From Armatimonadota bacterium (lineage in GTDB: Bacteria; Armatimonadota; Fimbriimonadia; Fimbriimonadales; GBS-DC): a stretch of 64,000 nucleotides of DNA. Shown here one piece after another: positions 36,409 to 62,705 of this stretch (positions are counted from its first letter, which is position 1; each line of letters opens with the position of its first letter). The notes under the pieces were generated by a model. That model was not told the DNA's origin. It did no database searches and worked only from the letters and a program-made list of their open reading frames with translations. The DNA lies in assembly GCA_037445735.1 (NCBI GenBank), contig JBBIJY010000001.1, forward strand, positions 133,987 through 197,986. Direction: 5' to 3'. The translations under genes were made by a program, and so were the position numbers.

Positions 36409-36497
36409 TCCTCACCCCAACCCTCTCCCACGCTGTGGGAGAGGGAGCCATTTGCCCCTCTCCCCCACCTGCGGGGAGAGGGTACGGGTGGAGGGGG
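36409..36497. repeat. REP-like double-hairpin repeat
   Basis: cctcaccccaaccctctcccac...gtgggagaggg...ccctctcccc...ggggagagggtacgggtggagggg, just after the ALDH stop. Confidence 0.8.
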
Positions 36498-37953: not shown

Positions 37954-38685
37954 CTACAGGTTCACTTTATCGTTCGGCAGCAGCACCTGCAGTTGCAGGT
38001 CGCGGCAGCCCAGCAGGTTCGCCTCGCGGTGCGGTCGGGCGCGAGCGCGAACGATCACCACCTGCCCGCGCTGGACACTCAGCGTATTACCCTGCACGAG
38101 GCACCATGCGTTCTCGTCGACCCCGATGCCCGTCAGGCTGGGATACTCCAGCACGGCGCAGAGCAGTCGGGGTAGCCGTCGCCGCTTCAGAAAGTGCTGG
38201 TCAATCACGGTATTGGGCAGGAGGTTGAGCGCGGGCGCGAGCGCGCTGCTGCCTGCCTGCAGGTTGCCATCGGGCGATTCCTCACCCGTGGGCATGCGGG
38301 CGCCCATCAGTGAAGCGCCCGCGCTCGTGCCGCCCACCACGCCCCCACGCGCCAGCACCGCCCGCAACGCCGTACGCAGGCGCCAGGATGCACCCAGCCG
38401 CTCCATGAAGCGGTTCTGGTCGCCGCCCGGTATCCAGACGCCCTGCGCCGTTTCGACAAGCGCGGCGATTTCGTCGGGATCGAGCGTGTCAGGCGCGATC
38501 AGGTTGCGTGCGCCGTTCTCCCGAAAGAACCCGGCGGAGCGCTGTGCCCCGCGCACCACCTCGCGCTGACTGTGCGCCAGCACCACGATTCGCGCCTCCG
38601 TGCCACCCGCCAGCCGAATCAGCATCTGGGGCACTTCCGAGGGCGTCGCGCCGCCTCCCACCAGTATCACTGCGCCCTGCCGCAC
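37954..38685 (-). CDS. Cyanophycinase (peptidase S51)
   Basis: VGGG, GGDQ, GGTSAGA, IDQHF..R.R..RL, GVDE; GTG start chosen 7 nt after a GG-TATTCT box. Confidence 0.85.
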   Translation of the reverse strand: MRQGAVILVGGGATPSEVPQMLIRLAGGTEARIVVLAHSQREVVRGAQRSAGFFRENGARNLIAPDTLDPDEIAALVETAQGVWIPGGDQNRFMERLGASWRLRTALRAVLARGGVVGGTSAGASLMGARMPTGEESPDGNLQAGSSALAPALNLLPNTVIDQHFLKRRRLPRLLCAVLEYPSLTGIGVDENAWCLVQGNTLSVQRGQVVIVRARARPHREANLLGCRDLQLQVLLPNDKVNL

Positions 38686-38725
38686 AGAAGTGAGAATACC
38701 CGCAAGGGGGTATACTCCTGCTAAT

Positions 38726-40573
38726 ATGGGCGCTGTGCGCACGGATGCGGAAGTTCAGATGGAGGTCTACTATCGTCCCCATCGTTCCAGTCGGGCGATT
38801 CTGGAGCCTGAACCGCCGCTGAGCGAGCTGGGCGCCACTTTCTGGGTGATTGTGCACAATCGGCGACGCCAGCCCCGCAATGTGAGCGCGATTTTAATCA
38901 ACGGTGTGCCCGCCGAATCGCTCACCAGCGGCAACGGGCTGAACTGGTTCCGCCTCACGCCGGAGCCGCTGCCACCAGGTGGCACCGCACTGCTGATTCT
39001 GAACATGCAGGCGTCGCTGCTGCGTCGGTCGCCGCTGCGCCTGAGCCTGTGGCTGGCGGACGGCGCACGCCATGAATGGGTGCTGCCCACCGATTCGTCG
39101 CCGCTGACGCTCGCCAGCGCGTGGCTGGACGGGCGCGAGCTGACAGTGGTGGTGCGCAACGATGACCCGCAACGCGCATGGCGCATCGAGCGGCTGCGCG
39201 TGGACGGCAGACCCGTGCGCTTCCGAACGCCCGATGCCACCCTCGCGCCCCGCACGCTCACCTTCGTCCATGCCCGACTGCCCCACACGCCTGAACCCCA
39301 TACAAGCCCCATCCTGCAGGTCGATGCACGCGCGGGTGTGGCGACCACCATGACAGCAGGCACGGTGCGACCCACGCCCCGATTCTTCCCGATTGGCACA
39401 TGGCGTACTGCGGCGTGGCAGGATGAGGCGCTCATGCGGGAGCTAACCGAGCGCGGCTTCGACACCTTCGTGTTCAGCGCGTCGGATGAACCAAACGAAG
39501 TCGAGCGACGTGCCTTCGAGCAGATATGCCCGCAGCGAAGTGTCAGGGCGCTGGTATTTGCGGGCTTTCCACGCCCCGCCGCGCGCTTTATCGAACGCCA
39601 CGCCCGCAACCCCCACATCGCAGCTTATATGATCAAGGACGAACCCGACTGGACCTCGCCGCGCGAGGTGGATGGCTGGCACCTGCCCACGCTGTGCGAA
39701 CGGATTGCCCGGTTCATTCGGGATCGGCAGGTGACGCCGCCGCTCTATCTCAATCTGGCGCGTTCGCGTCGCTTCGGCGAGTTCGCCACCATCCCCGACA
39801 TCGCCTGCTACGATGCCTATCGCGTCGGTGCACCGATGCCCGATTTGTCGCCTGTGCCGTGGGGCAATCGGCTGGAACTGGCGGCGACCTACACAGAGGA
39901 TTTGCGCGCGAACTGCGAGCCGCTGCCCTTCTGGGTGTGGGCGCAGGGAGCGCACGCATGGGATGAGCGCGTCTGGGTTGATGGACAGATCGGGCGGGCA
40001 TGCCCCACCCCCGAGGAGATTCGGGTTCAACTCTGGCTCCAGCTGAGCCGTGGCGCGAAGGGCGTCCTGTGGTTCACCACCTTCCGCGAGGAGGAGTTCC
40101 GCCGCCGCTACAGCGTGAATCCCGCCCTTCAACGCCTGCCCGAAACGGAGCGCCAGCGCGTGATGGAGCAACTGGTCGCGCACGGGCGCGAGGCATACGC
40201 GGAGCAGACACGCCTGAACCGATTTGTGCAGGCTGTGCGCGACCGCCTGCTGCGCATGGAATGGGCGGGCAACGCGACGATTGAGCAGGCAAGCAACCCG
40301 AAACGGCTGGACGCCGCGATCCTGCTGGGCGAGCGCGAAGCCGCGCTGTGGCTGACCAATCTGGACTATGAGATGCACCCGCAGGGATATCGGTTCCGTG
40401 AACAGCGCAGCATTCGGGTGCTGGTGCCGTTGCCGCGCTGGTTCAAGCCGCGCCGTGCGCAGTTTCGTGACCCTGCCAGCGAGCGCGAAATCGAGTTTCA
40501 GCCCGTGCCTGAAGGCGTGCGCATCGCGCTGGACACCCTGCCCGAACAGGTGGGCAGCCTCTGGCTGGAGTGA
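38726..40573 (+). CDS. Hypothetical protein, possibly glycoside-hydrolase-like TIM barrel
   Basis: FPIG.W, Y.IKDEPD, D.Y, P..EEIR.Q....L..GAKG..WF pattern. Confidence 0.6.
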   Translation: MGAVRTDAEVQMEVYYRPHRSSRAILEPEPPLSELGATFWVIVHNRRRQPRNVSAILINGVPAESLTSGNGLNWFRLTPEPLPPGGTALLILNMQASLLRRSPLRLSLWLADGARHEWVLPTDSSPLTLASAWLDGRELTVVVRNDDPQRAWRIERLRVDGRPVRFRTPDATLAPRTLTFVHARLPHTPEPHTSPILQVDARAGVATTMTAGTVRPTPRFFPIGTWRTAAWQDEALMRELTERGFDTFVFSASDEPNEVERRAFEQICPQRSVRALVFAGFPRPAARFIERHARNPHIAAYMIKDEPDWTSPREVDGWHLPTLCERIARFIRDRQVTPPLYLNLARSRRFGEFATIPDIACYDAYRVGAPMPDLSPVPWGNRLELAATYTEDLRANCEPLPFWVWAQGAHAWDERVWVDGQIGRACPTPEEIRVQLWLQLSRGAKGVLWFTTFREEEFRRRYSVNPALQRLPETERQRVMEQLVAHGREAYAEQTRLNRFVQAVRDRLLRMEWAGNATIEQASNPKRLDAAILLGEREAALWLTNLDYEMHPQGYRFREQRSIRVLVPLPRWFKPRRAQFRDPASEREIEFQPVPEGVRIALDTLPEQVGSLWLE

Positions 40574-40582
40574 ACCTGCCAC

Positions 40583-40927
40583 TTAGCCCGGCGGCCAGGT
40601 CATCTGGCGCCCGCCCAGCAGATGAAAATGCAGGTGGAACACCGACTGCCCTGCGGCGCGGTTCGTGTTCAGCACCACACGATAGCCCTCCGCTTCGATG
40701 CCCTCCTGGCGAGCAAGCTGCGCGCACACCCTTAGCAGATGCCCCAGCAGCAGCGCATGATCGGGCTGCACCTGTGCCAGGCTCGGAATGTGCGCACGGG
40801 GCACCACCAGCACATGCACGGGCGCCTGCGGGTTAATATCCCGAAAGGCGACCGCCTGCTCGTCTTCATAGATGATATTAGCAGGTATCTCCCGCGCCAC
40901 GATTTTGCAAAACAGGCATTCACTCAT
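40583..40927 (-). CDS. HIT (histidine triad) nucleotide-binding protein
   Basis: CLFCKI, AFRDINPQAP.H.LV, GQ.VFHLHFHLLGGR...WPPG. Confidence 0.96.
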   Translation of the reverse strand: MSECLFCKIVAREIPANIIYEDEQAVAFRDINPQAPVHVLVVPRAHIPSLAQVQPDHALLLGHLLRVCAQLARQEGIEAEGYRVVLNTNRAAGQSVFHLHFHLLGGRQMTWPPG

Positions 40928-41666
40928 GGTGGCTCTCCTCCTTCAGGTGTGTCAGGCGCACGCCCGTCAGCAGCTCCCGCAGCTTCTGCAGCACCTCCTG
41001 CTCCATCTGGCGCACCTCGTCGACCTTGAGCGAGAACATCTCGGCGACCTCTTCGTGCGTATGCACGCGCTCGCCGTGCAGCCCGTGCAGGAGCTTGATG
41101 AGCGCGCGTTCAGCTGGCAGCAGGGTCGCCAGCGCGCTCTCTAACTGTTTGCCGTCGACGCTCAGCGGGTCCAGCGCCTCGGCTTGCGCGGCGAGCGTGG
41201 CTTTCTGGCGCTTCTCCCGCTCATGCCACATGCGCACCACGCCCTCCACCTGCCGATAGTTGACCGTCTCCACATAGTAGCCCTCCGCCCAGAAACTGCG
41301 CTTGCCGATACGCCGCTCCAGGCGCGGCATCGCCTCAAACAGGCGGTGCGCTGTGCCACGCTTGATATTGCCCACTAAATCGGTCAGTGCCACCGTCGGC
41401 TTATAACTGACCAGCAGATTCACCTGGTTCGGTTTCAGATAGTAGGCGACGAGCTGATACTCATATTGCTGGCAGACCTCGCGCAGCGCATGGATGAAGG
41501 CGGGGATAACCTCTTCATCCAACAGCGGCTGGCGGGCGCGAGTGTAGAAAGTCGCGAGGCAATACAAACGGTAGGCGCTCGATCCACTGGTGTGGACCTG
41601 CTCATAAGGCGACCCCGTAGTCTGTCGTGCTGGTGAACCAGCCGTCTGCTCGCGTTGTGCTGGCAT
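40920..41666 (-). CDS. Inactivated IS200/IS605 TnpA-like (Y1) domain fused to a sigma70 region-4 domain
   Basis: TnpA-like YRLY....TR.R.PLL ... P.VAL..LVG.IK....H.L ... FWAEGYYVETV, with HxH read as QVN and no Tyr in the final helix; C-terminal L...ER..I.L..GL......T.EEVA..F.L....VRQ.E...L.KLR; purine-rich RBS before ATG 41666. Confidence 0.8.
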   Translation of the reverse strand: MPAQREQTAGSPARQTTGSPYEQVHTSGSSAYRLYCLATFYTRARQPLLDEEVIPAFIHALREVCQQYEYQLVAYYLKPNQVNLLVSYKPTVALTDLVGNIKRGTAHRLFEAMPRLERRIGKRSFWAEGYYVETVNYRQVEGVVRMWHEREKRQKATLAAQAEALDPLSVDGKQLESALATLLPAERALIKLLHGLHGERVHTHEEVAEMFSLKVDEVRQMEQEVLQKLRELLTGVRLTHLKEESHHE

Positions 41667-41769
41667 TCCTTCCACGCCTCCACACAAAAAAGCCCTGTAC
41701 AGCCTATCTTCCATAGTATACCCTACTTCTTGCGTTCCTTCCTGCCCGCGCAGGTAAAATTCCTGTGGA

Positions 41770-43143
41770 ATGGGCGCTCCGAAACGACCAGTGCTGGCGA
41801 TTGTGGGACGACCGAATGTGGGCAAATCGACGCTTTTTAATCGCCTGCTGGGTCGGCGGGTGGCGATTGTGGAGGCGATACCCGGCGTGACGCGCGACCG
41901 CCTCTATGGGGAAGCCGAATGGCAGGCTCGCCCCTTCATCGTGATCGACACGGGCGGAATCCTGTTCGGTGCGGACGACCCGCTGCTGGAGCAGGTGCGC
42001 GTGCAGGCGCAGATCGCCATCCACGAAGCCGACTGCGTGCTGTTTCTGGTGGACGCCCGCGAGGGGTTGAACCCCGTCGATGAAGAGATTGCCAATCTCC
42101 TGCGCCGCAGCGGCAAGCCCGTGCTGCTGCTGGTGAACAAAGCCGATAACCCCACACGCTGGGAAGCCCAGCGCGCCGAGTTCTTCCGACTGGGGCTGGG
42201 CGAGCCGATCCCCATCTCCGCCATTCACGGGCATAACTTAGCCGAAGTGCTGGAGGAAGCCTTCCAGCGCATCGAGGCGGACACCCCACCCAAAATAGAG
42301 GAAGCGACCACCGAGCCGCTCCGCCTGGCGATTGTAGGGCGACCGAATGTGGGCAAATCGTCGCTGCTGAACGCGATCCTGAACGAGCCGCGCGCGATTG
42401 TGAGCGAGAAGGCGGGCACCACACGCGACGCGCTCGACACACCCTTCACCTGGAACGGTCAGCCGATGGTGCTGATCGACACGGCGGGCATCCGTCGCCC
42501 CGGTCAGGTGCAGGGTTCGCTGGACTATTATGCGCAGTTGCGAGCGGAGCGCGCCCTGCAGCGTGCCGATGTCGCGCTGGTGGTCATCGACGCAAACGAG
42601 GGGCTGACCCACCGCGATCGCCGAATCGCCCAGCTCGCCATCGACGCTGGACGCGCATGCGTCTGGGTCGCCAACAAGTGGGACCTGGTGGAGCCGCCCG
42701 ACAGTCAACTCGCCCAAAATACGCCCGCCAAACGCGACTTCATCCGACTGGTTCAGCAGAGCGCGCCCGCGCTCGATTTTGTGCCCCTCCAGTTCGTGTC
42801 AGCGCTCCATCAGGCGGGCATCGAACCGCTGCTGAAGACCGCCCTGCAGGTCGCCGAGTTCCATAGCATGCGCGTCTCAACGGGTGAACTCAATCGGCTC
42901 ATTCACGACGCGCTCTATGAACGACCCTACTCGCGCAAGGGCAAGCCGCTCAAGATTTACTATGCCACGATGGCAGAGGTGCGCCCGCCCACGATTGTGC
43001 TGTTCGTGAACGACCCCGATATTGTCCACTTCTCGTACCTGCGCTATCTGGAGAATCGGCTCCGCGAGCGGTACGCCTACACGGGCACACCCATCCGCTG
43101 GGTGGTGCGACCCGCCCACAAGGAGCCGGAATCAACCGCCTGA
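41770..43143 (+). CDS. der: Ribosome biogenesis GTPase Der (EngA)
   Basis: Two GRPNVGKS G-domains, DTGG/DTAG, NKAD/NKWD, C-terminal KH-like domain. Confidence 0.97.
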   Translation: MGAPKRPVLAIVGRPNVGKSTLFNRLLGRRVAIVEAIPGVTRDRLYGEAEWQARPFIVIDTGGILFGADDPLLEQVRVQAQIAIHEADCVLFLVDAREGLNPVDEEIANLLRRSGKPVLLLVNKADNPTRWEAQRAEFFRLGLGEPIPISAIHGHNLAEVLEEAFQRIEADTPPKIEEATTEPLRLAIVGRPNVGKSSLLNAILNEPRAIVSEKAGTTRDALDTPFTWNGQPMVLIDTAGIRRPGQVQGSLDYYAQLRAERALQRADVALVVIDANEGLTHRDRRIAQLAIDAGRACVWVANKWDLVEPPDSQLAQNTPAKRDFIRLVQQSAPALDFVPLQFVSALHQAGIEPLLKTALQVAEFHSMRVSTGELNRLIHDALYERPYSRKGKPLKIYYATMAEVRPPTIVLFVNDPDIVHFSYLRYLENRLRERYAYTGTPIRWVVRPAHKEPESTA

Positions 43144-62515: not shown

Positions 62516-62705
62516 GAGGCTATTCGAAAAATCCCATCTGGAAGCAGGATTCCTCGCCCAGAGAAAAGTATGCCCCTCACCCCGGCTCTCTCCCCAGCGG
62601 GGAGAGGGAGCAACGAAGCCCCTCTCCCCCGCCTGCGGGGGAGAGGGTACGGGTGAGGGGGCTTCACTGAGGTCGATATTATGCCCCGAGTTTTCGAACA
62701 GCCTC
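62516..62705. mobile_element. MITE-like element: 15-bp terminal inverted repeats enclosing a REP-like double hairpin
   Basis: GAGGCTATTCGAAAA (62516-62530) and TTTTCGAACAGCCTC (62691-62705), 14/15 match; hairpins at 62573-62661; no transposase. Confidence 0.75.

Follow-up and report, generated by a model that had tools for sequence, protein, structure and literature searches.

Domesticated transposases are few in bacteria, and the known case from the Y1 group, the RAYTs, keeps its chemistry. Here we describe a gene in a 64,000-nucleotide stretch of the genome of an Armatimonadota bacterium (hereafter, the window, meaning this whole stretch) which encodes an IS200/IS605-type Y1 transposase (TnpA) core, apparently stripped of catalysis and joined to the end of a primary-type sigma factor, namely, sigma-70 region 4 (hereafter, the sigma-4 domain). 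This fusion gene is under selection across a whole family of uncultured bacteria. A first-pass annotation made by a model from the sequence had been aware of no described protein of this architecture, and indeed, no description of a protein combining Y1_Tnp and Sigma70_r4 was found in the literature, although the supplementary files of Quentin et al. 2018 might list variants.

Active IS200/IS605 TnpAs, such as those of ISDra2 and IS608, share the fold and the family hidden Markov model (HMM) with the fusion protein. The latter, however, lacks the histidine-hydrophobic-histidine (HUH) motif, the catalytic Tyr and the metal-site Gln, and its gene lacks the subterminal hairpins and tnpB. It is a fixed chromosomal gene, present in a single copy under purifying selection, and its product contains an additional N-terminal motif along with the C-terminal sigma-4 domain. 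Outside the family, the closest relatives of the fusion protein are TnpAs of the ordinary single-domain kind; an H-u-H string is present in the aligned stretch of 39 of the 40 best-scoring ones, with the positions partly checked.

The RAYTs (TnpA-REP) are likewise single-copy, vertically inherited, domesticated Y1 proteins, and criteria for calling them domesticated have been set out by Bertels et al. 2017 (PMC5581495). In RAYTs, the catalytic centre is intact and the genes lie amid repetitive extragenic palindromes (REPs) of their own, whereas the fusion protein appears to be dead, scores below the cut-off of the RAYT model and has no co-occurring or adjacent REP. The layout of TnpA-REP subclass 2.1 ("TIRYT") is similar, with a Y1 core followed by a C-terminal helix-turn-helix (HTH) domain of the Bac_DnaA_C, HTH_23 or HTH_28 family, but this subclass belongs to class 2, which, unlike the fusion protein, was chosen for the presence of the HuH and Y motifs (Quentin et al. 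2018, PMC6006769). Sequences without these motifs were set aside in that survey as probably non-functional, and the word "sigma" is absent from its main text (PMC6006769).

Another precedent comes from TldR, the nuclease-dead, RNA-guided repressors derived from TnpB, in which an IS200/IS605 protein also turned into a catalytically dead transcription factor (PMC10705468, PMC13622181). TldR is a TnpB with the RuvC fold and a guide RNA, whereas the fusion protein is a TnpA with no evident RNA guide that would be linked to transcription via its sigma domain. Together with TldR, both IS200/IS605 proteins would have been recruited into transcription control.

On the sigma side, the protein contains a bona fide domain with regions 4.1 and 4.2 that is closest to those of RpoD/SigA. 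It differs from sigma factors in that the Arg residues contacting the -35 element are replaced and a transposase core is attached, and because regions 2 and 3 are missing, it is no sigma factor by itself. A region-4-only protein is exemplified by the two-subunit sigma SigO-RsoA of B. subtilis, and the phage T4 proteins gp33 and AsiA/MotA, which bind the beta flap of RNA polymerase and replace or remodel region 4, provide a precedent for a small protein at the region-4 site. The T4 proteins have unrelated folds and are phage-encoded, and flap binding by the fusion protein is only predicted. If its sigma-4 domain does dock on RNA polymerase, it would be a case of a free-standing region-4 module encoded by a cell rather than by a phage.

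Domains and active site of the fusion protein

The first-pass annotation had claimed an intact open reading frame (ORF) of 248 codons with a Y1 TnpA pattern in the N-terminal part, a C-terminus aligning with RpoD region 4, and its own ribosome-binding site and GG-TATACT box. All these features were confirmed. The ORF lies on the minus strand, starting with ATG at 41666-41664 and ending with TGA at 40922-40920, and the gene and its upstream region are laid out as follows:

40920 to 41666, minus strand: coding sequence of the fusion of a predicted dead Y1 core with the sigma-4 domain, 248 aa, stop codon counted; the start Met is shared by the orthologues
41577 to 41666, minus strand: N-terminal 30 residues, basic and predicted to be disordered, with the conserved motif S19, E22, T26, G28, S29, S30
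41211 to 41576, minus strand: Y1 transposase (IS200 TnpA) core, residues 31-152, delineated by Pfam, AlphaFold2 and Foldseek
41418 to 41429, minus strand: former HUH metal site, N-Q-V-N, residues N80-N83, in which Q81 and N83 replace both His residues according to the alignment
41214 to 41252, minus strand: former catalytic helix, residues 139-151, QVEGVVRMWHERE, with V143 in place of the Tyr nucleophile and W147 in place of the metal-site Gln
41151 to 41210, minus strand: linker, residues 153-172, where the predicted local distance difference test score (pLDDT) falls to ~52; its length varies among orthologues and is far greater in distant members
40962 to 41150, minus strand: sigma-70 region 4 domain (4.1 and 4.2), residues 173-235, delineated by Pfam, NCBIfam, Foldseek and a gapless alignment with SigA
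41667 to 41681, minus strand: ribosome-binding region, with GGAGG at 41677-41681 and GGAAGGA at 41667-41673; GGAGG also precedes the ATG of the orthologues
41715 to 41723, minus strand: -10 box of the fusion gene promoter, GGGTATACT; most orthologues have it too, 35-60 nt ahead of their start codons
41739 to 41745, minus strand: GCAGGAA at the -35 position, 18 nt upstream of TATACT, present in many, not all, orthologues of genera g1, g2 and g212

An alternative in-frame ATG at 41714 falls within the -10 box and is absent from the orthologues, so the start at 41666 was retained.

Both domain assignments are significant. The Pfam Y1_Tnp family (PF01797) matches with an E-value of 2.8e-19 and 69.9 bits (cut-off 23), and Sigma70_r4 (PF04545) with an E-value of 4.8e-7 and 29.6 bits (cut-off 24.1), whereas Sigma70_r2, Sigma70_r3 or any other HTH family of Pfam gave no match to this protein at E-values up to 1. 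Among the NCBIfam models, the N-terminal part matches transpos_IS200 (NF033573) with 74.7 bits against a cut-off of 55 but stays far below the cut-off of the RAYT model NF047646 (33.7 vs 80 bits), and the C-terminal part matches RpoD/SigA-type models, with E-values down to 6e-9. A sequence search of the PDB retrieved ISDra2 TnpA (E 4e-9) and SigA region 4 (E ~1e-6), so that the best NCBIfam and PDB matches of the C-terminal part both are to RpoD/SigA. The AlphaFold2 model built from 32 family sequences has a mean pLDDT of 72, reaching 81-91 in the Y1 core and 80-90 in the sigma-4 domain, with residues 1-31 disordered. In Foldseek searches, this model matched the TnpAs of ISDra2 and IS608 (E 2.6e-9 and a TM-score of 0.75 on the target, ISDra2 being 2xm3), and also SigA region 4 (6onu_H; TM-score 0.73, root mean square deviation 1.9 A). 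Thus, the N-terminal part of the protein is an IS200/IS605-type Y1 core, and the C-terminal part is region 4 from a primary-like (RpoD-type) sigma factor.

The residues required for catalysis in TnpA are replaced. In the HMMER alignment with ISDra2 TnpA, H-V-H corresponds to Q81-V82-N83 of the fusion protein, the Tyr of QKYIESQ aligns with V143, and the Gln located four residues on aligns with W147; in class 1 of Quentin et al. 2018, where the context is Y---Q, this Gln belongs to the metal site (PMC6006769). The first-pass annotation had placed NQVN at exactly these coordinates, had noted a catalytic helix without Tyr, and had concluded that all catalytic residues were lost. This holds for the protein encoded in the window and, across the family, for the first His and the Tyr, but not for the second His. 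The first His is replaced by Gln in 27 of 27 orthologues (Q81 is also invariant in all 32 aligned members), and the catalytic helix contains no conserved Tyr, a single sequence of the 32 having a Tyr one column off. The second His position, in contrast, is occupied by H in 19 of the 27 orthologues, by N in 3, Y in 3, I in 1 and Q in 1. It seems free to vary, given that a 99% identical relative (L002) has H at position 83 where the protein in the window has N. The Trp that takes the place of the metal-site Gln is retained in 25 of the 27 orthologues and, together with R150, is invariant in the family alignment A1. This pattern of replacements points to a catalytically disabled Y1 core, and the protein would no longer cut DNA.

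The -10 box of the fusion gene is of a common type in this genome, with 170 occurrences of GGTATACT and 291 of GGTATAAT, and 571 such boxes show a 27-fold enrichment of TTGACA upstream. The gene therefore appears to have its own promoter of the housekeeping type along with its own ribosome-binding site. We also observed back-to-back divergent promoters in the same genome, with -10 boxes AGTATACCC ... GGGTATACT ~10-30 nt apart (e.g., C2:150527/150533 and C7:47449/47475).

Distribution, selection and genomic context

The fusion gene is confined to a single family. The phylum sample consisted of 401 genomes, 3 of which belong to the same GTDB family as the window. Full-length matches were detected in these 3 genomes and in none of the 398 others, where the next best match was partial, at 64 bits. 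Within the family, exactly one copy without internal stops was present in 27 of 29 genomes, including all 19 high-quality ones, and in 6 of 6 genera; the two genomes without the gene are 87% complete. Searches of much larger collections gave a concordant picture. A word-indexed search of 5.8 billion proteins identified 44 relatives, all 200-254 aa long, those with names coming from metagenome-assembled genomes of Armatimonadota or Fimbriimonadales. A search with the family profile yielded 60 clusters at 210 bits or more, followed by a match of 73 bits to an ordinary TnpA, and HMMER, run exhaustively against 1.84 billion representatives, recovered 5 proteins at E-values of 1e-30 or better, all of the same family. 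In the ESM Atlas, there is one cluster with this architecture, comprising 140 members.

Both halves of the protein have been retained throughout. Pfam detects Y1_Tnp in 32 of 32 aligned members and Sigma70_r4 in 31 of the 32, and all 27 orthologues, the most distant at 39-44% identity, have an intact frame, with 48 invariant columns. The dN/dS ratios were estimated by the Nei-Gojobori method (NG86). In genus g1, to which the window belongs, the ratio is 0.10-0.12 for diverged pairs and 0.03 for the near-identical pair formed by the window and L002; by partition and without the latter pair, it is 0.04-0.06 for the Y1 core, 0.09-0.15 for the sigma-4 domain and 0.04-0.13 for the neighbouring HIT gene. 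For the 120 pairs of the largest genus, g2, of which 102-113, depending on the partition, remained after pairs with saturated dS were dropped, the medians are 0.10 for the whole gene, 0.09 for the Y1 core, 0.07 for the sigma-4 domain and 0.06 for HIT. Thus, both domains evolve under purifying selection similar to that on HIT, with dN/dS well below 1, as the first-pass annotation had anticipated.

The gene is not a mobile element. The fusion gene itself is the only PF01797 match in the genome to which the window belongs (2.78 Mb in 59 contigs, 99.2% complete) and likewise the only sequence in it that the RAYT model picks up, at 34.9 bits against the cut-off of 80. No TnpB domains were found in the entire genome, and a search for flanking hairpins or inverted repeats within 40400-42000 yielded only a weak 10-nt pair inside der, which extends the annotation's remark that no tnpB or obvious IS ends are nearby.

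Exaptation, the reading proposed in that annotation, is well supported by these results: a single copy in one family, retention of the fusion, loss of the first His in all 27 orthologues and dN/dS of ~0.1. The domain matches are significant, the fusion extends far beyond one genome, and the orthologues are not active transposases, the opposite of what had been named there as fatal to the idea. We conclude, with high confidence for the statement as a whole, that a Y1 core predicted to be disabled and a region 4 of the RpoD type make up a domesticated, single-copy, non-catalytic TnpA-sigma4 host gene that appears to be transcribed from its own promoter. As a single, selected host gene kept throughout one Armatimonadota family, this appears to be a domesticated transposase of a new kind. 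At least some of the Y1 sequences without the HuH and Y motifs that earlier surveys set aside are, then, selected genes.

The genomic context is conserved only in part. Two genes flank the fusion gene in the window, as noted in the first-pass annotation and borne out by Pfam:

40583 to 40927, minus strand: HIT (HinT-like) gene, 114 aa, start overlapping the fusion stop by 8 nt; Pfam HIT, E 5.4e-30
41770 to 43143, plus strand: der/engA GTPase gene, divergent; Pfam MMR_HSR1 (two copies) and KH_dom-like

Because of the 8-nt overlap, HIT and the fusion gene probably form one operon. HIT is next on the same strand in 23 of the 24 loci of relatives, and the 24th locus ends inside the fusion gene. 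The synteny with both neighbours that had been envisaged for the orthologues held for HIT in 4 of 6 genera, but der is a neighbour only in the genus of the window (3 loci, L002-L004). In the most divergent genera (G421 and G422), HIT is on another contig, and the fusion gene is found next to pyrR-pyrB and VKOR/DsbA in G421 and next to nrdR in G422. In 17 of the 24 loci, all from genus g2, the fusion gene is immediately preceded by a gene of the same orientation for a DinG/XPD-like helicase (700 aa, Helicase_C_2 and DEAD domains, Cys cluster; e.g., L018, 3834-5936); the orthologue of this helicase is located ~112 kb from the fusion gene in the genome of the window. Given that the deeper neighbours change, the stable unit is the fusion gene itself, with the hinT linkage characteristic of the family crown. 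Among 14 loci of sister families (the unpublished L055, from G437, being excluded), 10 have a MiaB/MtaB-like radical-SAM gene in front of hinT, and no Y1sigma4-like sequence was found upstream of hinT in these loci.

Three observations on the neighbourhood can be added. The database entry P0052 reads as a fusion of a helicase fragment with the Y1-sigma4 protein and is probably a miscalled gene. PADLOC matches that would suggest a defence system are at the domain level only (MzaA in the sigma-4 part, ThsC as a HIT family protein). Finally, a 657-aa ORF (window 38600-40570, plus strand) is convergent with HIT, has no Pfam match at E 1e-5 and shows 74-92% identity in the two closest relatives.

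Possible roles of the fusion protein

Which function the sigma-4 domain could have depends on what has been conserved in it. The domain aligns without gaps with region 4 of SigA and of the second primary-like sigma factor of the same genome, and the region 4.1 segment LLPAER..(V/L)..L.GL.GE is invariant or nearly so in the family. In region 4.2, T-R-E-R-V-R-Q of SigA is replaced by K-V-D-E-V-R-Q in the window and by K-P-E-E-V-x-Q in most of the family, resulting in the family-wide pattern K-(P/V)-(E/D/H)-E-V-x-Q, which lacks both Arg residues of "RER" and varies at the Arg that follows. We take these arginines of SigA to be contacts of the -35 element. In the recognition helix, K214 and E217 are invariant, and Q219 nearly so. 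Judging from these substitutions, the domain probably keeps the scaffold of region 4 but not its ancestral reading of DNA.

Because the scaffold is kept while the residues reading the -35 element are lost, and because the flap tip is the natural partner of region 4, we prefer a role in protein contact. Under this model, the Y1 core would serve as a module for dimerisation and for holding nucleic acid, either single-stranded DNA (ssDNA) or a hairpin, like its TnpA relatives, and the sigma-4 domain would be a protein-contact module docking on the tip of the RNA polymerase beta flap or on another partner of region 4, so that the product would be a regulator coupling nucleic-acid structure to transcription. 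The combination of hairpin or ssDNA sensing with beta-flap contact had been proposed in the first-pass annotation and is plausible. The fusion protein is probably a transcription-linked regulator of some kind, whereas the full proposal of an RNA-polymerase-associated regulator, mechanism included, is tentative, and our confidence in it is limited.

The predicted complex of the genome's own beta-flap domain (P0099, RpoB residues 838-1012) with the sigma-4 domain (residues 165-240) scored 0.33 compared to 0.16 for the control, which is evidence neither way. Four genera of the family share the flap-tip helix TEQ(R/K)LVRIIFG, whereas all 15 sister genomes compared have TAEERLIIAIFG instead. As a separate observation on the beta flap (rpoB, G000:C19:25387-29505; loci L067-L096), there is a Cys-rich, Zn-ribbon-like insertion after the flap tip that is order-wide rather than family-specific. 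Similarly, SigA (G000:C15:16158-17504; loci L098-L127) carries a conserved C-terminal extension past region 4.2 (IGERIEDLRR...), which is shorter or missing in most sister families.

Several points weigh against polymerase docking. Duplex DNA is the usual ligand of HTH domains. Other Y1 proteins have HTH domains at the C-terminus that are interpreted as DNA-binding (Quentin et al. 2018, PMC6006769). Region 4.1 retains two basic residues (R187 and R/K191), and these, along with the conserved K214 and Q219, are compatible with DNA binding. The net charge of the sigma-4 domain (-5 to +2) does not discriminate because its range overlaps the values for region 4 of the two primary-like sigmas of the genome (+1 and -4). 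No parallel substitutions matching the changed flap-tip helix were seen in region 4 of SigA and region 4 of the fusion protein. Dimerisation and ssDNA binding by the Y1 core are assumed from homology, and binding of RNA polymerase and ssDNA by the fusion protein is a prediction. The context, varying at depth as described above, offers no functional lead.

Duplex-DNA binding with a new specificity by the sigma-4 domain is a serious rival. The protein could be an ordinary dimeric HTH transcription factor in which the Y1 core dimerises or senses a ligand or ssDNA and the sigma-4 HTH binds a duplex operator, possibly in its own promoter, autoregulating the Y1sigma4-hinT operon. Beyond the default behaviour of HTH domains and the Y1 proteins of subclass 2.1 that are read as DNA-binding (PMC6006769), this possibility gains from K214, E217 and Q219, which suggest a conserved contact surface, and from the GCAGGAA box at the -35 position of many, not all, orthologues in the three genera. 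The recognition helix, however, is acidic (K-P-E-E-V-x-Q-I-A-Q-E) in addition to lacking both Arg residues of "RER", and no palindrome or operator-like repeat is conserved across genera between the promoter and the start codon. We consider a factor of this kind unlikely, although it has to be taken seriously.

A different possibility is a "region 4" acting in trans, which would make the protein the first of a new class of accessory factors resembling sigma: the sigma-4 domain would take the beta-flap site from SigA region 4, the dead dimer would hold ssDNA or a hairpin in the ssDNA-holding role of region 2, and the polymerase would be redirected to special promoters. The candidate targets would be the GCAGGAAT-N-GGTATAAT promoters found at the fusion gene itself and at ~20 other genes (prepilin-type, dockerin-like and cold-shock). 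The pattern GCAGGAA-N15-20-TATAMT has 21 sites in the genome of the window (G000; others are, e.g., C1:41503, C8:45653 and C12:61814), and the genes behind sites of this class encode four prepilin-type proteins, three secreted dockerin-like proteins, a cold-shock protein, apt and others. There are 224 sites of the GCAGGAA(T) class in the 29 family genomes compared to 11 in 62 sister genomes, whereas the TTGACA-class control gives 569 and 71, respectively, exact GTATAMT boxes being few in the sisters (the unpublished G437 is included among these, with 0 and 1 hits, and dropping it changes nothing). Because the control is also low in the sister genomes, the excess of GCAGGAA shrinks to only ~2.5-fold (0.39 vs 0.15) and comes from one clade, which is too little to establish GCAGGAA(T) as the target of the sigma-4 domain. 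We find redirection of the polymerase in trans decidedly improbable.

The sigma-4 domain could also be a decoy that mimics region 4 of SigA and titrates a protein binding it, such as an anti-sigma-like factor, an activator or a WhiB-type protein, with the Y1 core as a dimeric scaffold. Retention of the scaffold with loss of the DNA contacts fits this idea, as does the fact that region 4 is a known hub of regulators, the PDB matches including SigA region 4 bound to WhiB1 (6onu, 6ono). No candidate partner other than hinT is conserved next to the gene, however, and hinT itself only in 4 of 6 genera, and titration leaves the retention of the Y1 core (dN/dS of ~0.05-0.09) unexplained. We regard such a decoy as quite improbable.

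We give a comparably low probability to a role as an ssDNA or fork factor in replication-transcription conflicts or repair, acting with the adjacent DinG/XPD-like helicase and HIT. HIT enzymes include nucleotide-adduct hydrolases, and the helicase gene directly precedes the fusion gene in most of the loci examined, as described above. IS608 TnpA has been reported to interact with DnaN and fork-like DNA (PMC6006769). The association with the helicase breaks down in the genome of the window, where the two genes are far apart, and where they are adjacent, the fusion gene still has a promoter of its own in the stretch that separates it from the helicase. The hinT linkage may be historical as well, because hinT already follows the MiaB/MtaB-like gene in the sister families.

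Much less probable still is that the protein remains an enzyme, a non-canonical HUH-type nuclease or REP processor that uses other residues and perhaps spreads REP-like repeats. Most orthologues do keep one His (Q-V-H), and the genome whose only Y1-family gene is the fusion gene carries 282 REP-like copies, but the catalytic helix lacks a Tyr in every clade and has a Trp in place of the metal-site Gln. The repeat itself is a REP/REPIN-like G-rich hairpin, CCCCTCTCCCCC, with a 3-4 nt loop, GGGGGAGAGGG-TAC-GGGTGAGGGGGC, often forming inverted doublets ~110 nt apart; its copies are thus numerous in a genome without a canonical Y1/RAYT gene. The copies within the window are:

36409 to 36427, minus strand, and 36476 to 36494, plus strand: degenerate pair, the nearest to the fusion gene, ~4.4 kb away
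62641 to 62659: exact copy, ~21 kb from the gene

With up to 2 mismatches, there are 282 copies in the genome of the window and 106 in its closest relative (G419), but only 1-2 in the two remaining genomes of the genus and 0-2 per genome elsewhere in the family. A genome from another family, in which no full-length match to the fusion protein was found, contains 23 copies of the bare hairpin per strand. The repeat does not track the gene, being abundant only in the genome of the window and G419 and nearly absent from the other 27 genomes of the family, the majority of which have the gene, so it was rejected as a conserved ligand of the Y1 core.

The last alternative, a decaying IS remnant surviving only through its promoter and its translational coupling, which would drive the essential-looking hinT, might be suggested by the 8-nt overlap, the promoter upstream of the fusion gene and the different upstream gene that drives hinT in sister families, but it is close to refuted by the intact frame in all 27 orthologues, the 48 invariant columns, dN/dS of ~0.1 in both domains and the persistence of the gene unlinked to hinT in G421 and G422.

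Origin and related proteins

Database searches also yielded proteins related to one or the other half of the fusion. One of these, P0127 (197 aa), is a canonical IS200 TnpA, with HUH and Tyr intact, that continues in frame after the catalytic helix into an RpoD-type region 4. Either an IS200 landed within a sigma gene or the assembly is chimeric; the protein illustrates how the fusion studied here could have arisen. An origin by insertion of an IS200 in a sigma gene beside hinT is unsupported: in the sister families, the position next to hinT is taken by the MiaB/MtaB-like gene, with no Y1sigma4-like sequence.

Several proteins of ~280 aa are tandem Y1-Y1 fusions (P0105, P0120, P0128, P0131, P0132, P0141, P0163, P0170, P0205), in which a canonical C-terminal half follows an N-terminal half with no HUH where it is expected, resembling a single-chain TnpA dimer with one dead site. 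Derivation of the Y1 core from the dead half of such proteins is unsupported, given that single-domain TnpAs, mostly with HUH, score equally or higher. On the sigma side, long proteins of ~460-1720 aa (P0103-P0118 and others) contain 5-12 separate stretches that match the sigma-4 portion of the family profile and appear to be tandem arrays of region-4-like units.

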